A stretch of 64,000 nt of DNA from the NCBI GenBank assembly GCA_965208425.1, contig OZ242335.1:2119181-2183180 (forward strand). The letters run 5' to 3'. This document shows, piece by piece, positions 1,378 through 35,530 of this stretch. The notes under the pieces are model-generated. The model was given only the letters and a program-made list of their open reading frames with translations, did not search any database and was not told the DNA's origin. Source of the stretch: Candidatus Poribacteria bacterium (GTDB lineage Bacteria > Poribacteria > WGA-4E > PCPOR2b). Every line of letters begins with the position of its first letter. The stretch's first letter is position 1. A program made the position numbers and the translations under genes.

Positions 1378-1574
1378 TTTTCTCTCCTCTGTAGTGATCT
1401 CCGGTGCAAGTTGGTGAGGCTGTTATTGCTAGGGCGTGTTGACATTTTGATATTCCCAATCCGGTAAGCATTCAAAGCGGCCTCCGCCGTGAATGGGTTG
1501 TAGGGAACAACGATCGTTGTTCTCTACGATGTCCCCACTAGGGCATAGAAGCAAGCCTAGCTCGTAGGGAACGG

Positions 1575-1925
1575 AGATCTCCGTTCCTTATGTTCTAAAC
1601 CAACGAGGCCATACGTTCAAAGAACGTCAACATTGGTTCAATTTGTTAAATGTCAACAGAACCTAGTACTCTGTCAGGCAAATTATGGTTGTGTATATTG
1701 ATTGAAAGCAAACAATAACATATCAGGACTTGCCCAGCCGAACGGTCAAAGCCGTTTCTCCCCCTTTAGCTGGCACTGAGGGGTGTGTGGGAGGGGCATC
1801 TCCCGCGAAGCGAGGATCCCGATAAATCGGGACCTGCCCCGATACGCCCGATGAATCGGGCAACTACAATCTGGAATGCGTAAGTCCTATAATTGCAAAA
1901 TGAGCACTAGTTGATTCATAAGTCC
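1575..1925 (+). repeat. composite MITE-like repeat element, copy A (about 280-350 bp); inverted copy at 9020-9300, partial direct copy at 8738-8850
   Basis: The reverse complement of 9061-9300 matches 1640-1880 almost base for base. Examples are caactagtaccctgtcaggcaaattatg..., gcaaacaataacatatcaggacttgcccag and the cccgataaatcggg core. The ends are TIR-like AGGACTTACGC / GCGTAAGTCCT. Confidence 0.85.
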
Positions 1926-2972: not shown

Positions 2973-3198
2973 TTTATCCCTCCTCCTAATTTCTGTTAAC
3001 ATTTGACAAATGAGATGACTTTGGGCTTCTGTAGGGGTAACCCTTGTGGTTACCCTGTGGTCTGAAGACTGTTTGTGTGTTGCGCAGGCACAAGTTTCTT
3101 AATCCCGATTTATCGAGGTCGCTTTGGATCCCGATCTCATTGGGGACTGCTATATTGAACGGATTCCTGTAGGGGCAATCCTTGTGGTTTCCCTGCTT

Positions 3199-4599
3199 CT
3201 AATTGATGACGGAAACCTCCCTCGCCAATGCGCCCATCGGATCCCATGCGGGTAGAACAATCGGTTCCGTCTCAAGGGCATCTTGCAGTTCATCAGGTAG
3301 ATACTCTTTTCGCGCAGCAATCTCAAACATATACTGGTCAAACCAGTTGTCATTCATCAGGTAGAACCCCTTACGCCCACTATCGGCACCCCAACTGTTT
3401 TCGACCCGCCAACGCCGTGGAATCTCTCTGCCGTTCTCCTGTATCACATCCACACCCGTGAATAGCATTGCGTGAGTCATCAGGGTCTGGTGATATTGGA
3501 GTCGTCCTGCTTTGTCAAGGGTGAATGGTGTGTCGTAGACCCCTTCGTAGTCAAATAGTTTCGCATCCCAGAGACCGAGATCGGTTTGCATCATCTTCCC
3601 AACATCGCACCCCATCCAGACCGGTTCCCCGTCCATAATAGTCTTCATCGCTATCTGTTTCATGAGGTCGATATCGATATTCAGGTATTTGACAATAGCA
3701 CCGCCCTCGACATTTCCGAGGCACTCAACTGTGAAGGTTTTGCCGATCGGGCTTGTTGGGCGTGGGTCGTGGACGAGGCAGACGTAATCATCGACCGGGA
3801 CGGTGATATATTTCTCTGCGAACTGTTGCGGCGTCATCTCCCCGTCACGGTGGAATTCTTTGTCCGCGTCGTTCCACTGCCAATCGAAATGGGTAGGCGG
3901 TGTGCCGAGATGAATAGATAGGATGCGGTGGATGACCGTGATAATCTCATCTTTGGCATCTACCAGTTCATCAAAACTCGCATCTTTTGATGCCATATCA
4001 CGAAGCGTCTTTGCACCCTCGCGCAGCTTATTCAATAGAATGCGATTCATCCGCATTGAACTTGAGGAACTCTGTGTCTCCGGCATAAACGCTTGGGGCA
4101 CGAGGCCATGTTTCTTAATCAGATTGACGAACATATTCCACTGTCCGCCATCTTCCAACGGGCTTTCAAGTAGCCATGCAACGCACCGATCATCTATGTC
4201 ACGGGCTACCATCTCAATCATCCGCTGCAGGAAATAGTTGGAACGTTCGAGCTTATCCCAGAAGAAGGTGTAGTTCTGGCTGAACTCAAATTCTTTCAGA
4301 TTCATCTTCTTCATCGCGCCGACGCGGAACAGGTTCAGTCCAGCGAACATCCAGCATCTGCCGCTGCTTTTCTGGTTCGTAACGCTCCAGTCATCTAACA
4401 CATGGCTGAAGGTGAAATCGCTGTTAGTAACAATCTGACGATCAAGGGCGATGTCATCGACGGCAATCTTACAGACGGCATTCTGCGCCATCCGATAAAC
4501 CGGGCTACCCTCAAAATCGTTGCGCAATTTTGTAATCCGGTGCGGGGACAGTGTCCCGTCTTGCAAACCTTCAAGTGACCTTAACGTATCGGCTGCCAT
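3199..4599 (-). CDS. pepC: aminopeptidase C / bleomycin hydrolase (C1B family cysteine peptidase)
   Basis: A 466-aa ORF. The active-site Cys motif QKSSGRCWMFAGLN is present. The overall length and the C-terminal ...ALAREVSVIN tail are typical of PepC/BLH. The RBS is GATAGGAG. Confidence 0.88.
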   Translation of the reverse strand: MAADTLRSLEGLQDGTLSPHRITKLRNDFEGSPVYRMAQNAVCKIAVDDIALDRQIVTNSDFTFSHVLDDWSVTNQKSSGRCWMFAGLNLFRVGAMKKMNLKEFEFSQNYTFFWDKLERSNYFLQRMIEMVARDIDDRCVAWLLESPLEDGGQWNMFVNLIKKHGLVPQAFMPETQSSSSSMRMNRILLNKLREGAKTLRDMASKDASFDELVDAKDEIITVIHRILSIHLGTPPTHFDWQWNDADKEFHRDGEMTPQQFAEKYITVPVDDYVCLVHDPRPTSPIGKTFTVECLGNVEGGAIVKYLNIDIDLMKQIAMKTIMDGEPVWMGCDVGKMMQTDLGLWDAKLFDYEGVYDTPFTLDKAGRLQYHQTLMTHAMLFTGVDVIQENGREIPRRWRVENSWGADSGRKGFYLMNDNWFDQYMFEIAARKEYLPDELQDALETEPIVLPAWDPMGALAREVSVIN

Positions 4600-5091
4600 A
4601 TCACAACTCCTATCTGTTAAAATTCAGTTGGTTTTTTGTATCCGCACCAGAGGTGCGAGATAATTGAGAGAGTCTAACCTAAGTTGCTAGTTATCTGCAG
4701 CGCGATAAAAGTCAACATCCTATACCCGTAGGTCGGGCATCTTGCCCGACATACAAAGCCCCAGCGGGGCGATAGGTGTATAGCAATGCCGAAATCCCAT
4801 ACTCCACAGCCCCAGCGGGGCGACAGGTATGGTGTTAATTTGATTGTTTCTAATATGTGTCGATTATGAAAAGTCGATCTACAGGTTGTCTAGCAACTTG
4901 CGTTAGTCTAGGAAATCAACGCAGGAGTCGGGAATTGGAATTCCCTCCTACACCAGACGGACGGTAGGAGCGATTTCCCAATCGCGACTTTCGCTCCGGA
5001 GAAGCGATATGTCTATAGAATGCCGATACCGCAGATGCCTGCACTCCAGCGGAGCGCAATGTGTATAGCAAAGCTAGTATCGAATCCAATC
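4600..5091. repeat. intergenic cluster of REP-type hairpin repeats of the CCCCAGCGGGGCGA(C/T)A(G/T)GTGTATAGCA and CTCCAGCGGAGCGCAATGTGTATAGCA families, plus a GTAGGTCGGGCATCTTGCCCGAC hairpin
   Basis: Units at about 4752, 4805, 4995 and 5045. The GTAGG-prefixed palindrome is at 4727-4752. The same families recur throughout the window. Confidence 0.8.
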
Positions 5092-6060: not shown

Positions 6061-6381
6061 CTGTCTATCTCCTGTTTTTTATGGGCTGATACCACGGTTA
6101 TAAAAAATATCAAATTCAACACCATGCCTGTCTTAAATCCACTTATTCTTCGGGAGAACGGTTGGTAGGGAACGCAGATCTGCGTTCCCTACAGAAATCA
6201 CTTCTCCACTCATTCGCTCCAGTTACTTTGAATCCCGGTGTTATCAAAAACAATCTCTATAATCCGGAAATATTGCAAGTTTTCTTAGCCCCAGCGGGGC
6301 GACAGGTGTGGCGTGAAGTTGGTGCTGCCCACCTAGGTTCTCATACATATCTTAGATTCGCCCAACCTATCGAACATAGGA

Positions 6382-7203: not shown

Positions 7204-7312
7204 AATAGTAGTAGGCACACGCCGTGTGCCGTAACTCTTTCTTCCCAGTGCTTACCAAACATTCCATCTAACCCGGTAGGTGCGGTTTCTAACCGCACCG
7301 GCTTTGACTATC

Positions 7313-7337
7313 CCATTAATTCTAAGATCTACCATAG
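7313..7337 (+). promoter_or_regulatory. R-box (CCATTAATTCTAAGATCTACCATAG), the right terminus of the same unit; a candidate promoter-like element
   Basis: Copies at 12634-12666, 15634-15668, 26623-26653, 34781-34808, 46927-46957, 59076-59108 and 63213-63243. Most of them lie 30-330 bp upstream of plus-strand start codons. Confidence 0.6.
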
Positions 7338-7553
7338 TTTCAGTCTGTAGGTCGAGATTCATATCTCGACAGCCTTGTGCTTTATTCTTGACATCAATTT
7401 TGCTTTAGTATATCCTTTCGGCACTTACAATTCAATCGAAAAAGTCCTTGTGAATTGTAAGTCAACGAAGGGTACTGTATCTGAACACTAGTCACCAATT
7501 CTACCGTTTTGAAGATCTGTAAATACACGACGCAGGAGGTATAAGCAAATAAT

Positions 7554-8423: not shown

Positions 8424-9455
8424 TTCGTAAAACGTGAAAACAATGAGTTCATGGGTTCATTTAGCCCCAGAGGGGCGACATGTCTATAGTACACAGGTAA
8501 ACAAATACCCTAAAGCCCCAGAGGGACGACATGTATATCCCAAGGGTGGAACATAAGAAGACTGAATTAACCAACCGACTAATGAACCGATGAACTCCCC
8601 GATAAATCGGGATCCGAAGTGGCTTGACCGATCCATACCCAGCAGGATGATATATATAAAAAAATACAATGGTTGGTAGGGAACAACGATCGTTGTTCCC
8701 TACGAGTTGGAACGTAGAAGTGCGTATATTTCGTAGGGAACGGTGATCTCCGTTCCATTTGTTAAATGTCAACAGAACCTAGTACTCTGTCAGGCAAATT
8801 ATGCTTGTGTATATGGATTGGAAGCAAACAATAACATATTAGGACTTACGCACTTCAGTAGTGAACAACGATCGTTGTTCACTATGGGCTTTTCTATGGA
8901 GTCTCTGTTGTAGTTGCCCGATTTATCGGGCGTTGTTGGGCGTTGGTGCGGCGATAAATCGCCGAACTACAGGATTTTGAGCGTTCAACTGCGTAAGTCC
9001 TGATATATAATAGCTGCAAAACTTATATGACTGAGTACTAGTGCTCAGTCAGATAAGTTTTACAATTATAGGACTTACGCATTCCAGATTGTAGTTGCCC
9101 GATTCATCGGGCGTATCGGGGCAGGTCCCGATTTATCGGGATCCTCGCTTCGCGGGAGATGCCCCTCCCACACACCGCTCAGTGCCCGCTAAAGGGGGCG
9201 AAAGGGCTTTGACCGTTCGGCTGGGCAAGTCCTGATATGTTATTGTTTGCTTTCAATCAATATACACAAGCATAATTTGCCTGACAGGGTACTAGTTGAT
9301 AAACCAAACGCTAGAAAGCAATCTATTAGGCGGGAATTAGAATTCCCTCTTACACTACGCAAAGTATACGGGGTGAGGCGTACCCTTCCGAATCATGACT
9401 TGCTTCGCTCCAATTGTACAAACTTTAGTAAAAAACTCAAAGGAGATTTTCTTTA
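8424..9455. repeat. 1-kb non-coding repeat nest (MITE/REP graveyard)
   Basis: It contains CCCCAGAGGGGCGACATGTCTATAG x2 with a conserved 23-bp spacer. It also holds GTAGGGAACAACGATCGTTGTTCCCTAC palindromes, a partial direct copy (8738-8850) and a full inverted copy (9020-9300) of the 1575-1925 element, and an 80-bp perfect-ish palindrome at 8990-9075. No ORF has protein-like composition. Confidence 0.85.
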
Positions 9456-12128
9456 ATGCAAATTCAGATTAAACCCAGTTTTCTGTTTTTCGTGTTTACG
9501 TTGTTCGTGTGCCTCAATTCCTTTTTCCTAGGGAATAGTGCTGCCCAAGTTCAAGATGAACCCATTGGTATATCTGCCAACTATACTTTTGAAACGATTG
9601 ATGTTCCCGGCGTCGAGTTTTTGGCGATAACAGCCAGTAGCGACTTTGAGGATTACGCCGGCTACACACTGAGCCCTGATGGTGAAAAGGAAGTCGGCTT
9701 TACACTCATTGATGGCGTTTTTGAGACCTATGATTTCCCCGGCTCGCAGAAAACCCATTTCTACGCGCTTGGTAATAATGGGCTAGCTGCGGGTCACTAC
9801 CAGGATAGCGACGGTCTGTATCATGGCGTTATTGTGGAAGATGGCGAAATGCGGCAATACCATTTTCCGGGTGCGGTCCAAACGGAGATATACGGGTATA
9901 GCGATTCGACGGGGGCAATGACGGGTAATTTTATTGATACTTCTGGCATTCGTCGTGGATTCTCAGGAGATGAAATAATTGAGTATCCCGGGGCAACGGC
10001 AACTTATGCCACTTTTGTGAACGACGTAGGCAATGTCGTGGGTAGCTACATAGATGCTGAAGGTACATATCATGTATACGTGCGTGGTCCCGGGGGTAGT
10101 TTTGCAACTCTGGATATTCCAGCAGGATCGGATCCCGAATACTTTTTTCTGCAAGGTATTAATAACGCCCTGATTGCTGTCGGTCGAGCCAAAGCGGTGG
10201 GTGATGTCCCGCGCACCTATGCCGGCAATGCCATCGGTCTACAAGAATTGCAGTTTCCGGGCAGCGTCAGCACGGAAGGCTGGAATGTTAATCAGGATGG
10301 CTCTATCGTGGGACACTATGACTCTGCGGATGGACGTAGACACGGGTTTATCGCTAGACCGAAAGCGGGTACTCCACAAGCACGACCCGGTGTTGTGCAG
10401 CCTGCCCTCAACTATACCTTTGAGAGTATTGATGTTCCCGGTGTAGATTTTCTGGCGGTAACTGCGAGTAGCGACTTTGAGGATTACGCCGGCAACATGC
10501 GGAGTGCTGATAGTGAAAAAGATATCGGCTTTACACTCATTGACGGCGTTTTTGAGACGTATGATTTCCCTGACTCGCAGGGCACCTATTTCTATGCACT
10601 CGGCAATGATGGGACAGCTGCGGGTCACTACCAAGATAGCGATGGTCTTTACCACGGTGTTATCTTAGAAAATGGCGAACTGCGTCAATATGATTTTCTA
10701 GGTGCTGTCGAAACGTTCATATACGGGTATAGTGATGCGACGGGACGACTAACGGGTAGTTTTATAGATGCTGATGGTGTTCGCCGTGGTTTCTCAGGAG
10801 ATCTAATAATTGAATACCCTGGGGCATCGGCAACCTACGCCGATTTTGTGAACTGGTCAGGCAATATCGTGGGCAGCTACGTGGATGCTGAAGGTATGTA
10901 TCATGCATACACGCGTAGTCCGGTGGGCAGATTTCTATCTATGGACCTTCCAAACGCAACAAATCTGGAATACTTTTTTCTGCACGGTCTCAACAATGCA
11001 AGGGCTGTCGTTGGTCGCGCCAAAGCGGTGGGTGATGTCCCGCGCACCTATGTCGGCAACCCCCTCAATCTACAAGAATTGCGGGTACCGGGCAGCGTCA
11101 GCACGGAAGGGTGGAATATCAATCAGGACGGCTCCGTCGTCGGACACTATGACTCAGCAGGTGGGCGCAGACATGGCTTTATTGCCAGACTCACTTCCGA
11201 GGCGGTGAGCGATTATTTTGGCAACGTCTTCAACGTCACACTGGCTAAAGGTCTGAACATGATCTCTGTGCCGTTGTCACCACCAGCGCCGATGACTGCA
11301 AAATCGCTTGCGGGGCTGACAGGGGCAACCACCGTCATCACACTCGATACGGCAAACCAGCAGTTCGTCGGGTGGACACCAACCGCACCGGACGACGGTT
11401 TTCCAATTGAGGGTGGGAAAGGTTATATCGTCAATGTTCCGGAAACTCGCCAATTTGCCTTCGTCGGGTCAGAATGGACAAATCAGACGGAAACTGCAGC
11501 AGCACCTGCTATCTCCGTGGAGCCGGTCCAAGAAGCGTGGGCGTTCGTTGTAAGTGGTCACTTGGACGGCAAAGCAGCGTTTGATGGTTATCAAGTTATC
11601 GTCCGTAATCTGAGGACAAATCACACAATAACCACCTCGGTACGTGGTGATTACTTCGCCGCTGCGACCGCTGACTTGGCACGGCGGAGTGTTGTCGAAG
11701 TTGGAGATGTGCTTGAAGTCCGTGTTATCGGGCCGGGTGGAAATGTTGAATCACACACCCTCAATTACGAAGTAACCCCTGAAGACCTAGCGAACGCGGT
11801 TATGTCTATCAGGCTTGATAGTATCGGTCAACCGAAGCTGACGCAGTTGTTGCAGAACTTCCCCAATCCGTTTAACCCTGAAACTTGGATTCCATACCAG
11901 CTTGAAACAGCCGCAGATGTCACCCTCCACATTTACCACACAGCAGGTGATATCGTGCGGACGCTGGATCTCGGTTTCAAGGGACAAGGGTTCTATATGA
12001 CGCGCTCTAGGGCAGCGTACTGGGATGGGCGCAATAACTTGGGCGAGCAGGTTGCTTCTGGGGTTTACTTCTACAGCTTACATACCCCTGACTTTTCAGC
12101 GACTCGGAAGATGTTAATTTTGAAGTAG
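9456..12128 (+). CDS. secreted HAF-like-repeat protein with C-terminal NPFNPET (FlgD-Ig / T9SS-type) sorting-like domain, paralog 1 of 3
   Basis: An 890-aa ORF with an AAAGGAG RBS. The signal peptide is MQIQIKPSFLFFVFTLFVCLNSFFLGNSAAQ. Two ~290-aa tandem super-repeats are each made of ~45-aa units of the pattern FPG..T..YGIN..G.VVG.Y.D..G..HGFIA, which is HAF/DUF3466-like. A conserved ~300-aa C-terminal module ends ...LLQNFPNPFNPETWIPYQLETAADVTLHIY...VASGVYFYSL...RKMLILK. Confidence 0.85.
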   Translation: MQIQIKPSFLFFVFTLFVCLNSFFLGNSAAQVQDEPIGISANYTFETIDVPGVEFLAITASSDFEDYAGYTLSPDGEKEVGFTLIDGVFETYDFPGSQKTHFYALGNNGLAAGHYQDSDGLYHGVIVEDGEMRQYHFPGAVQTEIYGYSDSTGAMTGNFIDTSGIRRGFSGDEIIEYPGATATYATFVNDVGNVVGSYIDAEGTYHVYVRGPGGSFATLDIPAGSDPEYFFLQGINNALIAVGRAKAVGDVPRTYAGNAIGLQELQFPGSVSTEGWNVNQDGSIVGHYDSADGRRHGFIARPKAGTPQARPGVVQPALNYTFESIDVPGVDFLAVTASSDFEDYAGNMRSADSEKDIGFTLIDGVFETYDFPDSQGTYFYALGNDGTAAGHYQDSDGLYHGVILENGELRQYDFLGAVETFIYGYSDATGRLTGSFIDADGVRRGFSGDLIIEYPGASATYADFVNWSGNIVGSYVDAEGMYHAYTRSPVGRFLSMDLPNATNLEYFFLHGLNNARAVVGRAKAVGDVPRTYVGNPLNLQELRVPGSVSTEGWNINQDGSVVGHYDSAGGRRHGFIARLTSEAVSDYFGNVFNVTLAKGLNMISVPLSPPAPMTAKSLAGLTGATTVITLDTANQQFVGWTPTAPDDGFPIEGGKGYIVNVPETRQFAFVGSEWTNQTETAAAPAISVEPVQEAWAFVVSGHLDGKAAFDGYQVIVRNLRTNHTITTSVRGDYFAAATADLARRSVVEVGDVLEVRVIGPGGNVESHTLNYEVTPEDLANAVMSIRLDSIGQPKLTQLLQNFPNPFNPETWIPYQLETAADVTLHIYHTAGDIVRTLDLGFKGQGFYMTRSRAAYWDGRNNLGEQVASGVYFYSLHTPDFSATRKMLILK

Positions 12129-12706
12129 CCCCGTAGGTTGGGTAGAGCGTTAGCGAAACCCAACATAATCAACTTTCGCTCTCTGGTAGGTGCGGTTTCC
12201 AACCGCACCGCATTCAATCCAATCCGGTAGGTGCGGTTTCCAACCGCACTGCATCAGCACAGAAAGTTCATGTAGGTCGAGATTCACATCTCGACAAAAT
12301 CTCTTGGAAAATTGACCTATAGGAGGGCTAAATGTAGGGGCAGGTTTCTTAATCCCGCCTGTCCCGATTTATCGGGGATCTATCGGGGTCTTGTGCCTGC
12401 CCAAAAAGATGAGCGCGGAGTAGCCCCGTAGGTTGGGCAGAGCGTTAGCGAAACCCAACATAATCAACTTTTGCCCTCTGGTAGGTGCGGTTTCATGAAG
12501 TTTAATTTATTAATTCGGTAATCCCGATTTTCCTCGAAACATAGGGTAGGCGCGGTTTTCAACCGCGCTGGCGTCGATAGCAAATTACCGAAGTATTTTT
12601 TTATCTTCATCCAACCGCACCGGTTTCAAATGTCTCATTAATTCTAAAATCTACCGTAAATTATAGAAATGGGCAACATCAGTCCACCGAAAAGGAGCTT
12701 TTCTTT
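12129..12706. repeat. BIME-like cluster of GTAGG-prefixed REP hairpins between paralogs 1 and 2
   Basis: It contains CCCCGTAGGTTGGGTAGAGCGTTAGCGAAACCCAAC x2 (12127, 12418), GTAGGTGCGGTTTCCAACCGCACC x3, GTAGGTCGAGATTCACATCTCGAC, GTAGGGGCAGGTTTCTTAATCCCGCCTGTCCCGATTTATCGGGG, and then the R-box at 12634. Confidence 0.85.
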
Positions 12707-15411
12707 ATGCACAGTCAGGCCAAACCCAATTTTCTGTTTTACATCTTTACGTTGTTCGTATGCCTCAATTCCTTTTTCTTAAGTAACACCGATGCACAAA
12801 CCGATAATGACTCAACTCCCCCACCGCCTGAATTCAGCTACACTTATGAGAGTATTGATGTCCCCGGCGTAAATTTTTTAGCGTTGACAGCGAGTTCTGA
12901 CTTTGAGGATTACGCGGGTTACACGCGTAGTGCTGATGGTGAAAAGGAAGTCGCCTTTACACTCATTGATGGGGTTTTTACGACCTATGATTTCCCCGGC
13001 TCGCAGAAAACTCGTTTCTATGCGCTTGGTAATGATGGGACAGCTGCGGGCCACTACCAAGATAGCGATGGTCTTTACCATGGTGTCGTCTTGAAAAATG
13101 GCGAATTGCGCCAGTACGATTTTGAGGGTGCAGTCCAAACGGAGATATATGGTTTCAGTGATGCAACGGGCGTTCTGACGGGTAATTTTATAGATGCTTC
13201 TGGCGTTCGCCGTGGATTCTCAGGGGACACAATCGTTGAAGCGCCTGATGCAACAGCAACATACGCCGATTTTGTGAACGCGAGTGGCGCTATCACAGGA
13301 AGTTACGTAGGTGCTGACGGTCTATATTATCCATACGTGCGCACCCTGAATGGCACATTTGTAATTCACGACTATCTGGATTCATCAACTCTGGAATACT
13401 TTTTTGTGCACGGTCTCACTGATACAAGGATTATCGTTGCACGAGCTAAAGCGATAGGTGATATTCCACGTTCCTATGTCGGCACATCCCAGCAAGGATT
13501 ATCTGAATTACAGTTTCCGGGCAGTGTTAGCACAGAGGGTTGGAATATTAATCAAGATGGGTCTGCCGTCGGGTATTACGACTCTGCGGATGGACGTAGA
13601 CACGGATTTATCGCCAGACCCACTGCGGAAACTGCTGAAAAATTCAGAGATATAGCTTATCCCCCCCCACCTGAATTCAATTATACTTATCAGAGCATTG
13701 ATGTTCCGGGAATAGATTTTCTGGCGTTGACGGCGAGCAGCGACTTTGGGGGGTATGCAGGCTACGCGCGAAGTCCTGATGGTGAAAAGGAAGTTGCGTT
13801 TACACTCATTGACGGTGTGTTTACAACGTATGATTTTCCCGGCTCACAGGGTACCTATTTCTATGCACTCGGCAATAATGGGTTAGCTGCAGGGCACTAC
13901 CAAGATAGCGATGGCCTTTACCATGGTGTCGTCTTGGAAAATGGTGAACTGCGCCAATACGATTTTGAGGGTGCGGTCCAAACGGAGATATATGGTTTCA
14001 GCGATGCAACGGGTGTTCTGACGGGTAATTTTATAGATGCTTCTGGTGTTCGTCGTGGATTTTCAGGGGACACAATCGTTGAAGCGCCTGATGCAACAGC
14101 AACATACGCCGATTTTGTGAACTCACAAGGTCTTGTCGTAGGCAGCTACATGGATGCTGATGGTTTATTTCATGCCTACGCGCGCACCTTGAGTGGTCGG
14201 TTTATACTTCTTGACTATCTTGACCCGCTAACTCTGGAATACTTTTTTTTACACGGTATTAACGACGGGGGGGAAGGGGTGTATTTGTGATTGCCCGATC
14301 CAAATTTGTGGATGATATTCCACGCTCCTATGTCGGCTCATATCTGTACGGGCTACACGAATTGTGGTTTCCGGGTAGCGTGAGCACAGAGGGTTGGAAT
14401 ATCAATCAGGACGGCTCCGTCGTCGGACACTATGACTCAGCAGATGGGCGCAGACACGGGTTTATTGCCAGACTCGGCACTAAATCAGAGAGCGATTATT
14501 TTAGTAACGCCTTCAATATCACGCTCGATAAAGGTTTGAACATGATTTCTGTGCCGTTGTCACCACCAACACCGATGACTGCGAAGTCACTTGCCGCGCT
14601 GACAGGGGCGACCACCGTCATCACACTCGATACGGCAAACCAGCAGTTCGTCGGGTGGACGCCAAGTGCACCGGACGACGGGTTTCCTATTGAAGGTGGG
14701 AAAGGTTATATCGTCAATGTTCCGGAAACTCGCGAATTTGCCTTCGTCGGGTCAGAATGGACAAATCAGACGGAAACTGCAGCAGCACCTGCTATCTCCG
14801 TGGAGCCGGTCCAAGAAGCGTGGGCGTTCGTTGTAAGTGGTCACTTGGACGGCAAAGCAGCGTTTGACGATTACCAAGTAATCGTCCGTAACCTCAGAAC
14901 AGACAGGGTGATAACTGCTTCGGTGCAAGGTGATTACTTCGCCGCGGCAACCGCCGACTTGGCGCGCCGGAGCGTTGTCGAAGTTGGAGATGTCATTGAA
15001 GTCCGTGTTATTGGGCCGGGTGGAAATGTTGAATCACACACGCTCAACTTTGAAGTAACCCCTGAGGACCTAGCGAACGCGGTTATGTCTATCAGGCTTG
15101 ACAGTATCGGTCAACCGAAACTGACGCAGCTGTTGCAGAACTTCCCCAATCCGTTCAACCCGGAGACATGGATTCCATACCAGCTTGAAACAGCCGCAGA
15201 TGTCACCCTCCAGATTTATGATACGTCTGGCGATCTGGTGCGGACATTAGATCTCGGTTTCAAGGGACAAGGGTTCTATATGACACGCTCTAGGGCAGCG
15301 TACTGGGATGGGCGTAACAATTTGGGCGAGCAGGTTGCCTCTGGGATTTACTTCTACAGTTTGCATACCCCTGACTTTTCAGCGACTCGGAAGATGTTAA
15401 TTTTGAAGTAG
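12707..15411 (+). pseudogene. secreted HAF-like-repeat protein paralog 2, reading frame broken at a G7 homopolymer (about 14265-14290). The ORF track splits it into 12707-14290 and 14287-15411.
   Basis: The N-terminal part (527 aa, MHSQAKPNFLFYIFTLFVCLNSFFL...) stops at HGINDGGEGVYL*. The downstream frame continues IARSKFVDDIPRSYVGS..., homologous to the IVARAKAIGDIPRSY segment of the intact repeats. The C-terminal module is more than 90% identical to those of paralogs 1 and 3. Confidence 0.75.
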
Positions 15412-15709
15412 CCCCGTAGGTTGGGTAGAGCGTTAGCGAAACCCAACATAATCAACTATGGTGGATTCTAAAAACAGATAGACACTTTCGTCCTTTGGTA
15501 GGTGCGGTTTCCAACCGCACCGCATCGGCACAGTTAGAAACAGTGCCTACCAAACCGGAGAACGGTAGGTGCGGTTTCCTAACCGCACCCGTGCCGACTC
15601 GTCGAGCATCCTTGATAAATCGGGATTTGAAGTGTCTCATTAATTCTAAGATTCACTATAAATTATAGGAATGGACAACATTAGTCCACCGAAAGGGAGT
15701 TTTTTCTTT

Positions 15710-18382
15710 ATGCACAATCAGACCAAACCCAATTTTCTGTTTTTCGTGTTTATGTTGTTCGTATGCCTCAATTCCTTTTTCCTAGGGAATAGTGCTGCCC
15801 AAGTTCAAGATGAACCCGTTGGTATATCTGCCAACTATACTTTTGAAACGATCGACGTTCCGGGCGTAGATTTTTTAGCGTTGACGGCAAGTTCCGATTT
15901 TGAGGATTATGCCGGTTACACGAAAAGTGCTGATGGTGAAAAAAATGTCGGTTTTACACTGATTGATGGCATTTTTATAACCTACGATTTCCCTGGTGCC
16001 CAAAACACGTATTTCTACGCGCTTGGTAATGATGGGCGCGCTGCGGGCTACTACGAAGATAGCGAGGGTTTGCACCACGGTGTTATCTTGGAAGATGGTG
16101 AGATACGGCAATACGATTTCCCCGATGCTGTGCAAACAGAGATATACGGTATTAGTGACGCGACGGGAGTATTGACGGGTAATTGGATAGATGCTGCTGG
16201 TGTTCAGCGTGGATTTACAGGAGACACAATCCTTGAGTTCCCCGGGGCAACAGCAACATTCTCCGATTTCGTCAACTCCGCAGGCAATATGTTCGGCAGC
16301 TACATAGATGCTGACGGGCTATTTCAAGAATATGCATATTCCTCGGATGGCAGGTATATAGCTTTCGATCTCGCAAATGCAGAAAATCTCGAATTCTTTT
16401 ATGTGCATGGTTATAACGATACAAAGACAAGGGTTGCCCGAGGTAAAGTGTTCGGTGATGTCACACGCACTTATCTAGGTACATTTGTTGACGGTCTGCG
16501 GGAATTGAAGGTTCCGGGCAGCGTCAGCACAGAAGGTTATAATATCAATCAGGACGGTTCTGTTGTCGGGTTCTATGAGACACCCGATGGACGTAGACAC
16601 GGGTTTATTGCCAAACCCATTGAAGTCGTTGATAAACCCGTTTTCCAAATCAGTGGCTTCAACTATACTTATGAGAATATTGATGTACCGGGCGTAGATT
16701 TTCTGTCGTTGACAGCAAGTTCTGACTATGAAGATTACGCGGGCTACACGAAAAGTGCCGATGGCGAAAAAATGGTCGCCTTTACCCTTATTGATGGTGT
16801 TTTTAAGACCTACGATTTTCCCGGTTCACAGAATACCTATTTCTTTGCACTCGGTAATAATGGCGATGCTGCCGGCTACTACGAGGATAGCGAGGGGCAC
16901 CACCGCGGTATCGTCCTACAAAATGGCGAGTTACGCCAATACGATTTTCCGGGCTCCGTTGAAACAGAAATATACGGCATTTCTGATGCAACGGGGAACC
17001 TGACGGGTAATTGGACAGATGCTTCCGGCGTGCGTCGCGGATTCACAGCGGACATAATCGTTGAGTATCCGGGGGCATCGGAAACATTCGCCGATTTTAT
17101 CAATGCGTCAGGGGGTATGGTCGGCAGCTACGTAGATGCCGAGGGTACATATACACCATACCTACGCGCTGGAGATGGCAGGTTTGTATCTTTCGACCTT
17201 CCGACCGAAGAAACTTATGAATTCTTTTATGTGCACGGTCAAACCGATACGAAGATTTCCGTTGCTCGAGGCAAAGTCGTAGGTGATGTTCCCCGCACTT
17301 ATGTCGGTTCATTCCTTGGGGGGCTCCATGAATTGAAAGTTCCAGGCAGCGTTTCAACGGAAGGGTACAATATCAATCAGGACGTTTCTGTCGTTGGACA
17401 CTATGACTCCCCGGATGGACGCAGACACGGCTTTATCGCAAGACTCGTTGATAAAGCAGAGAGCGAGCATTTCGGCAATACTTATACCGTCACGCTGGAT
17501 AAAGGTCTGAACATGATCTCTGTGCCGTTGTCACCACCAGCGCCGATGACTGCAAAATCGCTTGCGGGGCTGACAGGAGCGACAACCGTCATCACACTCG
17601 ATACGGCAAACCAGCAATTTGTCGGGTGGACACCAACCTCACCGGACGACGGTTTTCCAATTGAAGGTGGAAAAGGCTATATCGTCAATGTTCCGGAAAC
17701 TCGCGAATTTGCCTTTGTCGGGTCAGAATGGACAAATCAGACGGAAACTGCAGCAGCACCCGGTATATCCGCGGATCCAGTCCAAGAAGCGTGGGCGTTC
17801 GTTGTGAGTGGTCACTTGGAGGGTAAACAAGCGTTTGACGGTTATCAAGTAATCGTCCGTAATCTGAGAACAAACGAGGTGATAACCACCGCAGTACGAG
17901 GCGATTACTTCGCCGCTGCAACCGCCGACTTGGCGCGGCGGAGCGTCGTCGAAGTTGGAGATGTCATTGAGGTCGATGTCATCGGTCCCGACAGAAATGT
18001 TGAATCACACACCCTCAATTATGAAGTGACCCCTGAAGACCTAGCGAATGCGGTTATGTCTATCAGGCTTGACAGTATCGGTCAACCGAAGCTGACTCAG
18101 TTGTTGCAGAACTTCCCCAATCCGTTCAACCCGGAGACATGGATTCCATATCAGCTTGAAACAGCCGCAGATGTCACCCTCCAGATTTATGATACGTCTG
18201 GCGATCTTGTGCGGACGTTGGATCTCGGTTTCAAGGGACAAGGGTTCTATATGACGCGCTCTCGGGCCGCGTACTGGGACGGACGCAACAACTTGGGTGA
18301 GCAGGTTGCCTCTGGAATTTACTTCTACAGTTTGCATACCCCCGACTTTTCGGCGACACGCAAGATGCTGATTTTGAAGTAG
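15710..18382 (+). CDS. secreted HAF-like-repeat protein with C-terminal NPFNPET sorting-like domain, paralog 3 of 3
   Basis: The ORF track starts at 15671. Homology to the paralog N-termini and the GAAAGGGAG RBS favour the ATG at 15710 (MHNQTKPNFLFFVFMLFVCLNSFFLGNSAAQ). The architecture matches paralog 1. The C-terminal 300 aa are almost identical to those of paralogs 1 and 2. Confidence 0.85.
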   Translation: MHNQTKPNFLFFVFMLFVCLNSFFLGNSAAQVQDEPVGISANYTFETIDVPGVDFLALTASSDFEDYAGYTKSADGEKNVGFTLIDGIFITYDFPGAQNTYFYALGNDGRAAGYYEDSEGLHHGVILEDGEIRQYDFPDAVQTEIYGISDATGVLTGNWIDAAGVQRGFTGDTILEFPGATATFSDFVNSAGNMFGSYIDADGLFQEYAYSSDGRYIAFDLANAENLEFFYVHGYNDTKTRVARGKVFGDVTRTYLGTFVDGLRELKVPGSVSTEGYNINQDGSVVGFYETPDGRRHGFIAKPIEVVDKPVFQISGFNYTYENIDVPGVDFLSLTASSDYEDYAGYTKSADGEKMVAFTLIDGVFKTYDFPGSQNTYFFALGNNGDAAGYYEDSEGHHRGIVLQNGELRQYDFPGSVETEIYGISDATGNLTGNWTDASGVRRGFTADIIVEYPGASETFADFINASGGMVGSYVDAEGTYTPYLRAGDGRFVSFDLPTEETYEFFYVHGQTDTKISVARGKVVGDVPRTYVGSFLGGLHELKVPGSVSTEGYNINQDVSVVGHYDSPDGRRHGFIARLVDKAESEHFGNTYTVTLDKGLNMISVPLSPPAPMTAKSLAGLTGATTVITLDTANQQFVGWTPTSPDDGFPIEGGKGYIVNVPETREFAFVGSEWTNQTETAAAPGISADPVQEAWAFVVSGHLEGKQAFDGYQVIVRNLRTNEVITTAVRGDYFAAATADLARRSVVEVGDVIEVDVIGPDRNVESHTLNYEVTPEDLANAVMSIRLDSIGQPKLTQLLQNFPNPFNPETWIPYQLETAADVTLQIYDTSGDLVRTLDLGFKGQGFYMTRSRAAYWDGRNNLGEQVASGIYFYSLHTPDFSATRKMLILK

Positions 18383-18456
18383 CTCCGTAGGTTGGGTAGA
18401 GCGTTAGCGAAACCCAACATGATGAGTTTAATGCGGAGTCAGGAAGGACTAAAAAA

Positions 18457-19293: not shown

Positions 19294-19577
19294 TAGGCAC
19301 GCTCTGTGTGCCGTAACCTGCCCCCATTTCCGTAGGTCGGGCATCCCCCGCGGGATCCTCCCGGACTTGTCCGGTGCTTCGTAGGGAACGCAGATCTGCG
19401 TTCCATTTTTTTTACGTATTACGAATTACGTATTATACTTCATTAACCCCAGTTGCTTTGAATCCCGATCCTATCGGGGCAGGGCGGTATGTTTATAGAA
19501 TACCAGCGATCTAAATCTTCTCAAGCCCCAGCGGGGCGACATGTGTGTAGAACGTCATCCAAAAAAGGAAACGACAA

Positions 19578-27979: not shown

Positions 27980-30148
27980 ATGAATCACAGAGTACATAAT
28001 CAGATCGTCAACTTTATTTGGGGGATTGCGGACGATGTGTTGAGAGACATCTACACACGTGGGAAATACCGAGACATTATTCTCCCGTTCACCGTTCTAA
28101 GAAGATTGGATGCCCTCTTAGAGCCCACAAAAGAAAAAGTGCGCGAAGTCAACCAATTCCTGATTGAGAACCAGATTGATGATAAATCTGCTCTAAAGGG
28201 GCAATCTGGCTATAAGTTTTATAATACCTCGAGGTTCACTTTCAAAATCTTGTTGAACGATCCAAACCACATCGGTTCAAACTTGAAAAATTATCTGGAC
28301 GGTTTCAGTGAAGATGTGCAGCAAATTATCAGCAAATTCAAACTCAAGAACCAACTCGAAACATTGGAAGATGCTGGTATCACCTTTGCCTTGATTTCAA
28401 AATTCGTTTCCAGAGACATCAATCTGAGTCCCGAAGAAGCAGTAAATAGCAAAGGTGAAATACTGCCTCCGTTAACCAACTTGGGAATGGGTTATGTCTT
28501 TGAGGAATTGATCCGAAGGTTCAGTGAGGAGAACAACGAGGAAGCCGGTGAACACTTTACCCCAAGAGAAATCATCAAACTGATGACTCATCTGCTATTC
28601 CTACCGGTGAAGGATAAACTCACAGAGGGCACAACATATCTGATTTATGACCCCGCCTGTGGGTCGGGCGGAATGCTTACAGAAGCGGAACTGTTTGCCA
28701 AGGAATTGACGCAGGAGCGAAATGAATTTTTCCTTTATGGACAAGAGGTCACCCCGGAAACCTACGCGACTTGCACGGCAGACATGCTAATCAAGGACAA
28801 AGATCCTGAAAACATCGCCCACGGTTCTACTCTCTCAGAAGACAGTTTCCCGCACCTGCGATTTGACTTCATGCTCTCCAATCCGCCCTATGGCAAAAGT
28901 TGGAAACTTGACTATGATGCGATTGTTGGTGACAAAAAGCAAATCAAAGACGATCGATTTCGCGTCGGTGTCCCCAGAGTCAGCGACGGACAACTCCTTT
29001 TTCTCTCCAATATGATCTCTAAAATGAAGCACGACACGGCACTCGGAAGTAGGATCGCTATTGTTCATAACGGATCTGCTATCTTTACGGGGGAGGCTGG
29101 AAGTGGCGAGAGTGAAATCCGTAAACAGATGATTGAAAATGATTGGTTGGAGTGTATTATTGAACTTCCCCAGAACATCTTTTACAACACCGGGATTTCA
29201 ACCTACATCTGGATTCTTTCCAATCGGAAGCCGAACCGCCGCCAAGGGAAAATACAACTTATTGATGCCTCCCAACTTTACCAGAAGCTCAACAAGAATT
29301 TAGGGCAGAAGAATTGTGAGTTAACGGACGAGCACATCGACAAAATTACGCAGCTCTATCTTAACTTTGCAGAAAGCGAGATCTCAAAGATTTTTGGGAA
29401 CGCAGAATTTGGCTATCAAAAAATCACCGTTGATCGACCATTACGGCTGTCCGCTAGATTCACCCCTGAGGCAGTCGAAACGCTCCGTTTTGCGAATGTC
29501 CTCCGGGCTGAAATGGAATGGGTTTATAAACGATTTGGCGATGCAGTTTATGAGGATTTAACACCCCATAAGCAACAGATTGAGGCGTATATCGCTTACA
29601 ACGAAATCAAGATCAGCCCCGCAAATAATAAGAAAAAGCTACTTGACCCGAAGTTTTGGAACACACAAAGAAAAGTCATGGAAGCAGCCGAAAAGTTGAT
29701 GGTGGAGTTGGGCGACTACGAATCTAATGACTTTAATAAATTCCGACATGCGGTTGATGATACCCTCAAAATGTTTGGGATTTCACTCAGTGCAATCGAA
29801 AAGAAAACAATTTTCAATGCCGTTAGTTGGAAGGACGAAAGTGCACAACCTGTCATCAAAAAATGGGACCGGGATGGCACGTTCCATTATGAGCCTGATC
29901 CAGACCTAAGAGATACAGAAAATGTTCCGTTGGTGCAAGAGATTGACGACTACTTCCAAACGGAAGTTCTGCCCTATGTACCTGATGCGTGGATCGATGA
30001 AGATAAAACTGTTAAAGGCTATGAGATTCCCTTTACCAAATACTTCTACCGGTATCAACCGTTGCCAAGTCTTGAGGAGATTACTGCTGACGTTCTTGTT
30101 CTTACACAGGAAACCGAGGGCATTTTACAGGATATCATCGAATCGTAG
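27980..30148 (+). CDS. hsdM: Type I restriction-modification system, DNA methyltransferase subunit M (long form, 722 aa)
   Basis: The RBS is AAGGAGAA. Motif I is IYDPACGSGGML and motif IV is MLSNPPYGKSW (NPPY, N6-adenine). An HsdM_N-like N-terminus is present, plus a ~200-aa C-terminal extension. Confidence 0.9.
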   Translation: MNHRVHNQIVNFIWGIADDVLRDIYTRGKYRDIILPFTVLRRLDALLEPTKEKVREVNQFLIENQIDDKSALKGQSGYKFYNTSRFTFKILLNDPNHIGSNLKNYLDGFSEDVQQIISKFKLKNQLETLEDAGITFALISKFVSRDINLSPEEAVNSKGEILPPLTNLGMGYVFEELIRRFSEENNEEAGEHFTPREIIKLMTHLLFLPVKDKLTEGTTYLIYDPACGSGGMLTEAELFAKELTQERNEFFLYGQEVTPETYATCTADMLIKDKDPENIAHGSTLSEDSFPHLRFDFMLSNPPYGKSWKLDYDAIVGDKKQIKDDRFRVGVPRVSDGQLLFLSNMISKMKHDTALGSRIAIVHNGSAIFTGEAGSGESEIRKQMIENDWLECIIELPQNIFYNTGISTYIWILSNRKPNRRQGKIQLIDASQLYQKLNKNLGQKNCELTDEHIDKITQLYLNFAESEISKIFGNAEFGYQKITVDRPLRLSARFTPEAVETLRFANVLRAEMEWVYKRFGDAVYEDLTPHKQQIEAYIAYNEIKISPANNKKKLLDPKFWNTQRKVMEAAEKLMVELGDYESNDFNKFRHAVDDTLKMFGISLSAIEKKTIFNAVSWKDESAQPVIKKWDRDGTFHYEPDPDLRDTENVPLVQEIDDYFQTEVLPYVPDAWIDEDKTVKGYEIPFTKYFYRYQPLPSLEEITADVLVLTQETEGILQDIIES

Positions 30149-35515: not shown

Positions 35516-35530
35516 TCCCCAAAGAAAGGA

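Follow-up and report, generated by a model that had tools for sequence, protein, structure and literature searches.

The window, by which we mean the whole 64,000-nucleotide stretch analysed here, belongs to Candidatus Poribacteria bacterium, a sponge symbiont, and is ~81% coding and ~19% non-coding. Its gene content includes T9SS-type C-terminal domains, PhyH, GFO_IDH and PD40, and a search of the window for known RNA families and tRNAs returned none. A cyanobacterial origin, to which the style of the repeats might have pointed, was rejected because the gene content and a genome scan both indicated Poribacteria. The intergenic spaces are occupied by ~10 families of small DNA hairpins that start with GTAG. 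They amount to ~45 units in ~10 stem classes and have the size (palindromes of 20–40 nt) and multi-copy nature of REPs. The mapped units are as follows.

1500–1587, plus strand: class A REP pair (GTAGGGAACnnnGATCnnnGTTCC) in an intergenic region between minus-strand genes; the first is a near 'double-foot' form
3031–3055, plus strand: intact class F REP, GTAG followed by GGGTAACC/CTTGT/GGTTACCC (hairpin 3035–3055); −7.9 kcal/mol, z −3.6
3095–3150, plus strand: copy of a separate 'CCCGATTTATCGGGG' hairpin repeat, between the class F units at 3031 and 3169
3169–3193, plus strand: class F REP (GGGCAATC/GGTTTCCC), decayed, its stem carrying a single C.T mismatch and a single wobble; −2.9 kcal/mol, z −0.15
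4728–4750, plus strand: class D REP, GTAGGTCGGGCATCTTGCCCGAC, in a spacer between minus-strand genes
4930–4985, no strand assigned: class H inverted pair (4930/4964), GGGAATTGGAATTCCCTCCTAC, 12 nt, GTAGGAGCGATTTCCCAATCGC; tail-to-tail, REPIN/BIME-like
6165–6192, no strand assigned: class A 'double-foot' REP, a perfect 28-nt palindrome GTAGGGAACGCAGATCTGCGTTCCCTAC of the type described in PMC6006769
7208–7370, plus strand: REPs of classes G (GTAGTAGGCACACGCCGTGTGCC), B and C, arrayed head-to-tail between divergent genes
8676–8703, plus strand: class A double-foot REP, in the group 8676–8884
8733–8756, plus strand: class A single REP with a T-tail, same group
8858–8884, plus strand: GTAGTGAAC variant, same group
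12133–12615, plus strand: mixed head-to-tail cluster of E (12133), B (12186), B (12227), C (12272), F (12334–12403), E (12428) and B (12481–12615)
12334–12403, plus strand: class F unit of that cluster, with an insertion of ~45 nt in its loop
12481–12615, plus strand: class B unit of that cluster, with a ~110-nt TIR element splitting its loop; the element holds a class B variant (12546)
15416–15589, plus strand: E (15416), B (15498) and B (15565)
15527–15550, minus strand: inverted partner adjoining the B unit at 15498, a variant with a T.T mismatch
18387–18418, plus strand: class E REP, 5 nt past the stop codon of the third paralogous secreted-protein gene; same junction at 12133 and 15416
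19381–19404, plus strand: class A single REP followed by T8, terminator-like
30145–30168, plus strand: class C-like REP (GTAGGTCGAATTTCAAAATTCGAC), whose TAG is the stop codon of an hsdM-like gene
34713–34735, plus strand: class G REP
39137–39159, plus strand: imperfect GTAGGGGCGGGGTTCCCCCGTCC REP, missing from the orthologous site of the related locus L031
40229–40253, plus strand: class F REP (GGGCAGCC/GGCTGCCC)
From 42757, plus strand, in the group 42757–42845: GTAGGGGCGAGGTTTCCTCGCCC REP, with an inverted imperfect partner at 42783–42805 on the minus strand
42821–42845, plus strand: class F REP, after the GTAGGGGCGAGGTTTCCTCGCCC REP and its inverted partner
48009–48032, plus strand: class C REP, kept at the orthologous site in L031 and in a second related locus, L120
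50779–50835, no strand assigned: second class H inverted pair (50779/50814)
52864–52886, plus strand: GTAGCGCAAACTGTTAGTTTGCG REP, identical in sequence in three other loci
57815–57838, plus strand: class B REP inside a TIR element; the L120 orthologue has one uncompensated T>C change
58917–59302, plus strand: a class B REP at 58917 and a class A REP at 59279, both in a block of 518 bp missing from L120
62686–62897, plus strand: mixed head-to-tail cluster of E, C, a C variant, E and D (double-foot)
63133–63238, plus strand: MITE-like element of ~105 bp, bounded by imperfect terminal inverted repeats, whose centre holds a class B variant REP (63180–63203, T.T mismatch)

An initial annotation of this DNA had described intergenic palindromes preceded by GTAGG, and every sequence that it quoted was found within a few bases of where it had been placed (GTAG at 3031, 3169, 40229 and 42821; classes A–E as quoted). 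The description was borne out by the enrichment of the motif, its position at the hairpin foot and its location between genes. GTAGG occurs 115 times, compared with 69.6 ± 8.0 expected from dinucleotide shuffles, none of 100 of which reached that count, and at 40 of the 115 sites a perfect stem of 6 bp or more begins within the next 6 nt. Hairpins with perfect stems of 7 bp or longer number 92, compared with 32–52 in Markov shuffles (~40 expected). At the foot of the hairpins, no tetramer comes near GTAG in frequency (37 of 184 hairpin-strand instances); the runners-up are overlapping derivatives of it, and the window thus carries the GT[AG]G tetranucleotide 0–2 nt 5' of the foot that defines REPs. 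The units are also extragenic: of the 41 strict GTAG hairpins, 40 lie between genes or touch a stop codon. In a genome scan, the class B 23-mer matched more than 115 stretches, nearly all within ~25 Candidatus Poribacteria assemblies. An assembly artefact, which the annotation had named together with a lack of intergenic enrichment as grounds for abandoning its reading, was ruled out because the same repeats recur in these ~25 independent assemblies, complete chromosomes included.

The annotation had further attributed the hairpins to mobilisation by RAYT transposases and suggested a search for the corresponding genes. Within the 64 kb, this search was negative: no Y1 transposase was found among the 50 large ORFs of the window (no Y1_Tnp match), and tblastn with RAYT probes, one of them an approximate E. 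coli RayT sequence, yielded nothing significant. REP-flanked RAYT genes were found in related Poribacteria, with identities checked against PDB 4er8, Pfam and NCBIfam, so that the predicted partners exist outside the window and the RAYT-type reading, which a complete lack of homologues would have undone, is supported. Their products pass the NCBIfam model NF047646 ('REP-associated tyrosine transposase') with 119–180 bits, against a cut-off of 80. The protein encoded at L042:2654-3232 reaches 180 bits and matches PDB entry 4er8 (E. coli TnpAREP) with E=1.6e-34, and those of L012 and L040 reach 121 and 119 bits, with 54–55 bits on Pfam Y1_Tnp. At least 200 relatives were retrieved at E<1e-10, several of them named Poribacteria transposases, and the full-length proteins among the best 120 relatives carry the HUH motif in 108 of 109 cases and the Y motif in 99 of 109.

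The RAYT lineages are each flanked by their own REP class, an arrangement known as a REPtron, and several such classes are present in the window. Class B, GTAGGTGCGGTTTCCAACCGCACC, flanks the RAYT gene in L012, L040, L080 and L117, and a compensated variant of its stem, GTAGGTTCGGTTTGTAACCGAACC, flanks that of L118. A class D-like REP, GTAGGCGGGGCATCTTGCCCCGC, was found beside the RAYT genes of L106 and L116, a class H-like REP, GTAGGAGCGACCTCCYGGTCGC, beside that of L119, and GTAGGGTGCGCACYGCGCACC (REP of the GGGTGCGC type) beside that of L042. For classes A, C, E, F and G, no cognate gene turned up among the RAYT loci of related Poribacteria, and no REP insertions within the RAYT gene, which are typical of subclass 2.4, were seen in Poribacteria RAYTs. 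Judged by sequence, the hairpins are very likely GTAG-tagged REPs, that is, non-autonomous single-strand DNA elements whose hairpin and 5' GTAG foot would form the substrate of a RAYT/TnpAREP (HUH-Y1) enzyme.

The stems themselves co-vary. Class F, for which the window and related loci supplied eight distinct sequences, has 98% of its cells paired and three pairs with changes on both sides, with a covariation score of 0.326, compared with 0.124 ± 0.04 for shuffled alignments, none of 500 of which scored as high. In class B, 96% are paired and four pairs have changes on both sides. In the alignment of outer-stem combinations, these were set in a common loop context, so that some of its loop columns do not reproduce observed sequences. 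Among intact units, those with short loops folded as DNA with z-scores of −3.5 to −6.5, and the long-loop class E unit with z −2.0. The annotation had listed four examples of co-varying stems, and three of them, the class F copies at 3031, 40229 and 42821, indeed fold stably (−7.9 to −10.7 kcal/mol, z −3.5 to −4.8); the fourth, at 3169, is the decayed copy and does not conform.

In the mechanism that we propose, a RAYT dimer would bind the folded hairpin on transiently single-stranded DNA, read the GTAG guide, and cut and rejoin the strand. This cut-and-rejoin step would copy or move units to other intergenic sites, often beside or within existing hairpins. If the enzyme reads the shape together with a few stem bases, only stems that still pair would stay substrates, which would yield the compensated variants, and new stem classes would arise along with diverging RAYT paralogues.

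The hairpins might instead be primarily RNA elements, acting as intrinsic terminators or 3' mRNA stabilisers and kept by selection on the transcript, with GTAG incidental. Most units of the window do lie downstream of plus-strand genes in sense orientation, and across the related loci 96 units are sense and 59 antisense to co-directional flanking genes. The class A singles at 19385 and 8737 precede T-runs and score as terminator-like, and many REPs are transcribed, as argued by Di Nocera 2013 (PMC3733652). However, classes B–F lack a T-tail, and the units in spacers between minus-strand genes (1500, 1564, 3031, 3169 and 4728) are antisense to their neighbours. An RNA role also leaves unexplained the unpaired GTAG conserved over ten unrelated stems, the RAYT genes flanked by the same hairpins and the rapid gain and loss among close relatives, and we consider it improbable as the primary one. 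Scanned for intrinsic terminators, the region from 1 to 20 kb yielded only three terminator-like REPs, namely the two T-tailed class A singles (19385 and 8737) and the variant at 8858. Some REP copies have probably been co-opted, and the T-tailed class A units may act as terminators. Class B units within an element bearing a promoter-like motif sit upstream of genes, which we list under the same probable co-option.

Most units in the window are singlets or stand in head-to-tail arrays of mixed classes. Regularly spaced inverted pairs, the hallmark of BIMEs and REPINs, are limited to four (4930/4964, 50779/50814, 15498/15527 and 42757/42783). The clusters at 12129–12706 and 62663–63316, which had been called BIME-like, do mix classes, but their units run head-to-tail rather than alternating and so are not BIMEs in the strict sense; according to Nunvar 2010 (PMC2817692), BIMEs hold alternating REPs, and inverted doublets are the commonest cluster type in pseudomonads. 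Nor is the packing of several classes unusual in itself, as had been thought, since class coexistence, hybrid clusters and compensated sub-families have already been described (PMC3733652, PMC2817692). The unusual part is therefore the head-to-tail mixed arrays, together with the polarity described below; head-to-tail dimers were absent or rare in most genomes surveyed by Di Nocera 2013 (PMC3733652). The class E copies at 12133, 15416 and 18387, which occupy the same junction behind paralogous genes, may stem from duplication together with the gene ends and not from independent insertion.

Close relatives that are 84–96% identical differ in REP content, the whole 62.7–63.3 kb cluster included, which indicates that turnover is recent. 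Comparison with L031 revealed three REP presence/absence differences within one orthologous spacer of 400 bp, as well as a composite insertion of ~130 bp that is present in L031 and missing from the window. The 518-bp block and the ~600-bp block (62.67–63.30 kb) of the window are missing from L120, although the flanking genes there are 89–97% identical. Among complete Poribacteria chromosomes, OZ242315.1 is syntenic with the window. Singlets, too, still show recent gain and loss in this system. As it was in some cases a larger composite block or a TIR element that was gained or lost, rather than a single hairpin, some of the spread may have taken other routes, for instance through a MITE transposase or recombination.

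That observation bears on a second alternative, according to which the repeats are ends or remnants of IS200/IS605-type elements (PATE-like MITEs), or TIR MITEs with an unrelated transposase, and do not depend on RAYTs. Some class B units lie at the centre of elements of ~105–130 bp with imperfect terminal inverted repeats that are polymorphic as a whole, the syntenic region of L120 holds a gene for an IS1595-family DDE transposase, and in PDB searches the L012-type proteins matched IS200-type structures (2fyx, E=2.7e-8) better than 4er8 (E=7.6e-5). The same proteins, however, score 119–121 bits on the RAYT model and 42–45 bits on the IS200 model, below its cut-off of 55, and most clusters of RAYT-family proteins were seen on only one to a few contigs. 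The RAYT genes are flanked by short REPs that are also dispersed alone, which is the REPtron layout, and are adjoined by neither tnpB nor IS-like cargo. Two distinct subterminal hairpins bounding a multi-copy element with tnpA/tnpB, as expected of IS200/IS605, were not observed; most units are single and cargo-free, and most of those in the window have no TIR context. We accordingly regard this alternative as very improbable.

Because most units are singlets, their orientation can be read. All unpaired units of the 64 kb lie on the plus strand, whatever the strand of the genes, and those gained independently in L031 have the same orientation as those of the window. In the other loci, of 8 kb, units at different sites were co-oriented in 74 comparisons and opposed in 36 (~67%), and the polarity switches once along several contigs. 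Whole-locus GC skew did not correlate with REP polarity. A signal emerged only after gene orientation had been separated: at fourfold sites, the GTAG strand is the C-rich strand regardless of gene orientation (over 65 independent loci R = −0.042, a value that none of 2000 permutations equalled or exceeded in size; in the window, −0.090). As to which strand is leading, the GC-skew and gene-majority rules pointed to opposite strands, and of the marker genes looked for in the loci, whether ori-proximal or highly expressed, a single gyrB turned up, in L043, pointing the same way as the REPs.

A third alternative takes the hairpins for DNA sites under host selection, serving gyrase, a nucleoid protein or some replication/segregation factor, for instance, and kept in one orientation for a chromosome-level function with the RAYTs currently idle. 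The like orientation of every unpaired unit in the 64 kb and the tracking of fourfold-site asymmetry across the 65 loci both favour it. Yet ten stems would need ten readers, or a single reader of GTAG alone, the differing REP content of genomes with 90–96% identity argues against a position-specific function, and co-orientation in the other loci reaches only the ~67% given above. We find this explanation hardly credible. Under mobilisation by RAYTs, the like orientation of the unpaired units probably reflects a strand specificity of insertion or loss as the chromosome replicates, and the tracking of synonymous-site strand asymmetry hints at such a link. For IS608, insertion and excision are tied to the lagging-strand template, with an orientation bias relative to replication (PMC6006769, PMC3333891). 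Our literature search found no report of a replication-strand bias for REPs, which inverted pairs would mask. We tentatively suggest a possible combined scenario in which REP singlets settle or persist on a single replication strand, so that the direction of the GTAG hairpins would be a chromosome-wide record of replication-coupled RAYT activity on single strands, and in which RAYT paralogues have radiated, each co-evolving with its own stem class, at least one of these classes being shared with high-GC Caldilineae.

These findings extend the reach of the REP/RAYT system to the sponge-symbiont phylum Poribacteria, for which our literature search retrieved no earlier description of it. The many RAYT lineages matched to stem classes constitute a natural series for the co-evolution of single-strand transposases and hairpins. 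If the polarity is tied to replication, it would provide direct genomic evidence for RAYTs acting on one template strand, for which there is now only the analogy with IS608. A noticeable part of the intergenic DNA of Poribacteria consists of these repeats; as genomes with 90–96% identity already differ in REP content, the repeats are possible strain markers, and their density may complicate short-read assembly and binning of Poribacteria symbionts.

By tag, hairpins and REPtrons, which follow the established pattern, the Poribacteria repeats belong, as far as sequence can tell, to the known GTAG-REP/RAYT superfamily (PMC3733652, PMC6006769, PMC2817692, PMC3333891). They share with the E. coli REP/BIME system and its TnpAREP (RayT/YafM; 4er8) the 5' GTAG at the foot of an imperfect palindrome of 20–40 nt, the high copy number, the extragenic location and a transposase gene with REPs of its own on either side. 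In E. coli, a single RAYT goes with three related types of REP, which mostly form inverted pairs (BIMEs) (PMC3333891), whereas the window has ~10 stem classes, mostly as singlets or head-to-tail, with loops of 3–5 nt and perfect stems of 7–9 bp. The GTAG-REP superfamily of Di Nocera 2013 comprises 24 families in eight phyla, Stenotrophomonas SMAGs included, and resembles the present case in having several GTAG families per genome, complementary stem changes in sub-families and repeat-specific REPtrons (PMC3733652). Hybrid BIMEs likewise cluster REPs of different RAYTs (PMC3733652, PMC2817692), and the Xanthomonas REP GTAGGAGCGCACC... resembles class H of the window. Poribacteria are absent from the phyla named for GTAG repeats in that survey (PMC3733652), in which strand polarity is unreported and the head-to-tail arrangement that dominates here is absent or rare.

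The REPIN–RAYT systems of Pseudomonas also combine single-copy RAYT genes with dispersed hairpin populations that diversify within genomes, and the class H pairs at 4930–4985 and 50779–50835 resemble their REPINs. In the REPIN model put forward by Bertels and Rainey in 2011, the mobile unit is said to be the inverted doublet and singlets its remnants; here, in contrast, singlets are the majority. Class A and D units such as GTAGGGAACAACGATCGTTGTTCCCTAC, with GTAG at one end and CTAC at the other, match the 'double-foot' type that Quentin et al. 2018 (PMC6006769) describe for TnpAREP subclass 2.4. IS608 and ISDra2, of the IS200/IS605 family, are autonomous and have two different ends and cargo, unlike the single, cargo-free hairpins and apparently single-copy RAYT genes described here. 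Nonetheless, with an HUH-Y1 enzyme, subterminal hairpins, a 5' guide tetranucleotide and action on one strand only, they provide the best model for the REP polarity of the window.

GTAGG occurred 115 times in the whole window, compared with 69.6 ± 8.0 in dinucleotide-preserving shuffles, none of which reached 115, and in 40 of these 115 cases a perfectly paired stem, 6 bp or longer, followed within 6 nt. Hairpins with perfect stems of 7 bp or more numbered 92, versus 32–52 in Markov shuffles, an excess essentially made up by the GTAG-prefixed set, and GTAG was the most frequent tetramer at the hairpin 5' foot (37 of 184 hairpin-strand instances in the window). While approximately 81% of the window is coding, 40 of the 41 strict units were intergenic or touched a stop codon. 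The GTAG-prefixed hairpins noted in the initial annotation are thus real, and an assembly artefact was ruled out because the same repeats recur in many assemblies. Few of these repetitive extragenic palindromes (REPs) are carried by a low-GC island at ~27980–35600 (41–44% versus about 50%), which was probably acquired horizontally. This island encodes a type I restriction-modification system with hsdM, hsdS and hsdR-like genes.

The units were sorted into about ten stem classes, which have in common the GTAG(G) foot and a loop that is short and rich in T:

Class A: GTAGGGAACnnnGATCnnnGTTCC(CTAC)
Class B: GTAGGTGCGGTTTCCAACCGCACC
Class C: GTAGGTCGAGATTCACATCTCGAC
Class D: GTAGGTCGGGCATCTTGCCCGAC(CTAC)
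Class E: GTAGGTTGGGT-loop-ACCCAAC
Class F: GTAGGGGCAACCCTTGTGGTTGCCC
Class G: GTAGTAGGCACACGCCGTGTGCC
Class H: GTAGGAGCGATTTCCCAATCGC
Further type: GGGGCGAGG/CCTCGCCC, plus a few others beyond A–H

Class F and B copies were gathered by tag and loop only, so that pairing was not selected for. Among eight distinct class F sequences, 98% of positions were paired, with three both-side pair changes (C-G to U-A, A-U to G-C or C-G, and C-G to G-C) and a covariation score of 0.326 versus 0.124 ± 0.04 when shuffled (0 of 500 shuffles reached 0.326); covariation was far lower in shifted registers. Class B was 96% paired, with both-side changes in four pairs, and one abundant sub-family retained a conserved T.T mismatch. 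Folded as single-stranded DNA, intact short-loop units yielded −7.5 to −12 kcal/mol (z-scores −3.5 to −6.5) and a long-loop class E unit −6.9 kcal/mol (z −2.0). Compensated class F stems had been proposed at four sites, and this holds for three of them; the fourth, at 3169, has decayed and folds poorly (−2.9 kcal/mol, z −0.15). The two units concerned around 3 kb are:

3031–3055, + strand: GTAG-prefixed unit GTAGGGGTAACCCTTGTGGTTACCC, intact class F
3169–3193, + strand: GTAG-prefixed unit GTAGGGGCAATCCTTGTGGTTTCCC, decayed class F copy

They lie in direct orientation, 113 bp apart, and the spacer includes a copy of another repeat (...AATCCCGATTTATCGAGG...).

Within the window, no Y1 transposase gene was found; loci retrieved from other genomes via the REP pattern (numbered with the prefix L, mostly from Poribacteria relatives) do encode such enzymes. 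The REP-associated tyrosine transposase (RAYT) genes and their sampled identity tiers are:

L042, 2654–3232: RAYT gene, 192 aa
L012, 5212–5685; L040, 3963–4436; L080: second RAYT type, 157 aa
L117: P0033, 70% identity to L012, flanking REP of class B
L118: P0057, 66% identity to L012, flanking REP a compensated variant, GTAGGTTCGGTTTGTAACCGAACC
L116 (orthologous L106 copy frameshifted): P0087, 54% identity to L012, flanking REP GTAGGCGGGGCATCTTGCCCCGC (class D-like)
L119: P0113, 50% identity to L012, flanking REP GTAGGAGCGACCTCCYGGTCGC (class H-like)

The L042 protein matched E. coli TnpAREP (PDB 4er8) with E=1.6e-34 and scored 180 bits on NCBIfam NF047646 'REP-associated tyrosine transposase', whose cut-off is 80 bits. 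Its gene has GTAGGGTGCGCACYGCGCACC units on both sides, and its TAG stop codon forms part of a GTAG tag. The 157-aa type scored 119–121 bits on NF047646 and 54–55 bits on Pfam Y1_Tnp. A class B REP is found 40–70 bp upstream on the same strand as the gene and an inverted variant (GGCGCnGTT...AACnGCGCCTAC) directly downstream; in L040 and L080 a further direct B-type REP comes next. At E<1e-10 the family extends to at least 200 relatives, which form several identity tiers; several are annotated as Poribacteria transposases, and most of the protein clusters were seen on one to a few contigs only. Each sampled RAYT lineage pairs with one REP class. Some lineages are decaying, since the L106 copy (1752–2242) is frameshifted by a 17-bp tandem duplication while its L116 orthologue is intact. 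The hairpins could instead be IS200/IS605 or MITE elements, which suits the composites with terminal inverted repeats (TIRs) but is at odds with how the proteins score on the RAYT model, with the small number of contigs per protein cluster and with the REPtron layout, in which a RAYT gene is flanked by its own REPs. With tnpA-REP genes flanked by REPs found in related Poribacteria loci (L042, L012, L040, L080 and L116–L119), the initial reading of the elements as of the GTAG-REP/RAYT kind, already known from other phyla, is supported. A literature search found no earlier description of such a system in Poribacteria, where the diversity of REP families is high.

In a collection of species-representative genomes, the class B 23-mer matched more than 115 stretches, nearly all of them from some 25 Candidatus Poribacteria assemblies, complete 5–7 Mb chromosomes among them. 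The window's own genes (T9SS-type C-terminal domains, PhyH, GFO_IDH_MocA, PD40 and a Suf operon) fit a Poribacteria host. The exact 23-nt REP was also present in 60–66% GC contigs from other phyla, namely Caldilineae/Chloroflexi (L013, L014, L030, L033, L065, L067, L083, L107) and Chromatiales (L055), as an inverted pair at least in L014; this suggests that the class B family, and presumably its RAYT, is common to several phyla.

REP content was compared with two syntenic relatives, JAJEAL010000008.1 (about 84% identity; loci L031 and L101) and L120, a 6.79-Mb chromosome with 89–97% identity over window 47–64 kb. Where the DAO-like gene adjoins the amidohydrolase gene, the orthologous spacers of the window and L031 differ in three REP units: class F and class C-like units are present in L031 only and a GGGGCGGGG-type unit in the window only. 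The class C unit at 48009 is conserved in L031; there it is followed by a composite of ~130 bp, centred on a class B REP, for which the window has no counterpart. L120 is missing two stretches of the window, a 518-bp block at 58.88–59.40 kb and, in its entirety, the ~600-bp cluster at 62.67–63.30 kb; at the cluster site it has instead a ~100-bp terminator-like hairpin element. One orthologous class B copy carries a single, uncompensated change. REP content thus shifts within less than 10% sequence divergence. Such rapid turnover, together with ten different stems, is hard to reconcile with purely host-selected sites.

Further repeats accompany the REPs:

63133–63238, also 12590–12655 and L031 (reverse complement, beside a class C REP): MITE-like element, about 105–130 bp
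3101, 12360, 39238, 49152, 62967 (examples): hairpin repeat AATCCCGATTTATCGGGG
7310, 12632, 15634, 26625, 46929, 59079, 63214, all + strand: motif GTCTCATTAATTCTAAAATC, seven copies
39174, 48064, 51246, 62900, 4755: untagged hairpin family, (C/G)GCTCCAGMGGAGCG then ATATGTCTATAG
37440–37474, and L120 6521, 7109, 16729: dispersed 14-bp-stem hairpin AGAAACCGAGTTTT-loop-AAAACTCGGTTTCT

The MITE-like element has imperfect TIRs (TAGATTYTAAAAATAAATGRACAC / GTGTCTCATTAATTCTAAAATCTA) around a central class B REP, and its L031 copy is absent from the orthologous window site. The AATCCCGATTTATCGGGG hairpin, separate from the REPs, has 14 copies in the window (7 +, 7 −) versus 0.05 expected, some with their own GTAG tag (GTAGTTGCCCGATTYATCGGGC at 8910, 9091, 1846 and 59176). 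Several GTCTCATTAATTCTAAAATC copies lie within ~100 bp upstream of + strand genes, with a TATAAT-like box after them; the motif is a possible promoter brought along by a mobile element. The untagged family is often tandem, upstream of genes and kept at orthologous L031 sites, and a copy of the 14-bp-stem hairpin occupies the site of the 62.7–63.3 kb REP cluster in L120.

Throughout the window, unpaired units have GTAG on the + strand whatever the gene strand, including in spacers between two minus-strand genes (1500, 1564, 3031, 3169, 4728) and in the divergent spacer 7208–7370; minus-strand units are restricted to inverted-pair partners, palindromic double-foot forms (GTAG at one end, CTAC at the other) and CCCGAT family copies. 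About 19 intergenic sites contribute independently, with a possible exception in the three class E copies that follow paralogous genes. A function as terminators or RNA stabilisers would suit some class A units, which have T-tails, but fails for other classes and for antisense units. Viewed in the window frame, the independent gains of L031 and the units of L101 and L087 are oriented as in the window. Between sites in 8-kb loci of other genomes, orientation agreed in 74 cases and disagreed in 36. A single polarity switch was seen along several contigs, as in OZ242036.1 (+ at 1.8 and 2.8 Mb, − at 3.4 and 5.4 Mb) and CAXXCS010000005.1 (+ at 0.47–1.09 Mb, − at 1.20–2.30 Mb); two other chromosomes gave no clear polarity picture.

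At fourfold-degenerate sites, with gene orientation separated, the GTAG strand was the C-rich strand (R −0.042 over 65 loci, with as extreme a value in 0 of 2000 random polarity flips); window values were R_GC −0.090 and R_TA −0.072, the effect being visible gene by gene from ~15 kb onward. Together with a polarity common to the region across relatives, this points to a property of the chromosomal region with a strand-level cause, not to transcription alone. A link to replication is a plausible but tentative reading, at even chances or somewhat less. The leading strand is usually G-rich and also gene-rich. By the GC-skew rule alone, the GTAG strand would be lagging-strand sequence, whereas its gene majority and the single gyrB that was found, also on this strand, speak for the leading strand. 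The gene-majority strand itself was C-rich at fourfold sites (R about −0.04 in 90 Poribacteria loci, −0.09 in the window), contrary to the two rules taken jointly. The polarity merits a whole-chromosome test.

At 12128–12165, 15411–15448 and 18382–18419, the same class E REP lies 5 nt past each of three paralogous secreted-protein genes, which have FlgD_ig/CHU_C C-terminal domains and end in ...AAGTAG, and at 30145 the TAG stop codon of the adjoining gene is part of the GTAG tag. Some units are nested: the class F unit 12334–12403 has a ~45-nt CCCGAT-type element inserted in its loop, and the loop of the class B unit 12481–12615 is split by a ~110-nt TIR element bearing a class B variant. The clusters had been described as BIME-like; distinct classes do occur together, but the units run head-to-tail and not in a BIME arrangement.

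The Poribacteria RAYT/REP layout is the REPtron pattern of other phyla (PMC3733652, PMC6006769, PMC2817692). Arrangement in the window differs from that of textbook REPs, with few inverted pairs (4930/4964, 50779/50814, 15498/15527, 42757/42783) and large head-to-tail arrays of different classes. Head-to-tail REP dimers are absent or rare in most genomes (Di Nocera et al., PMC3733652); the arrangement here is unusually head-to-tail.
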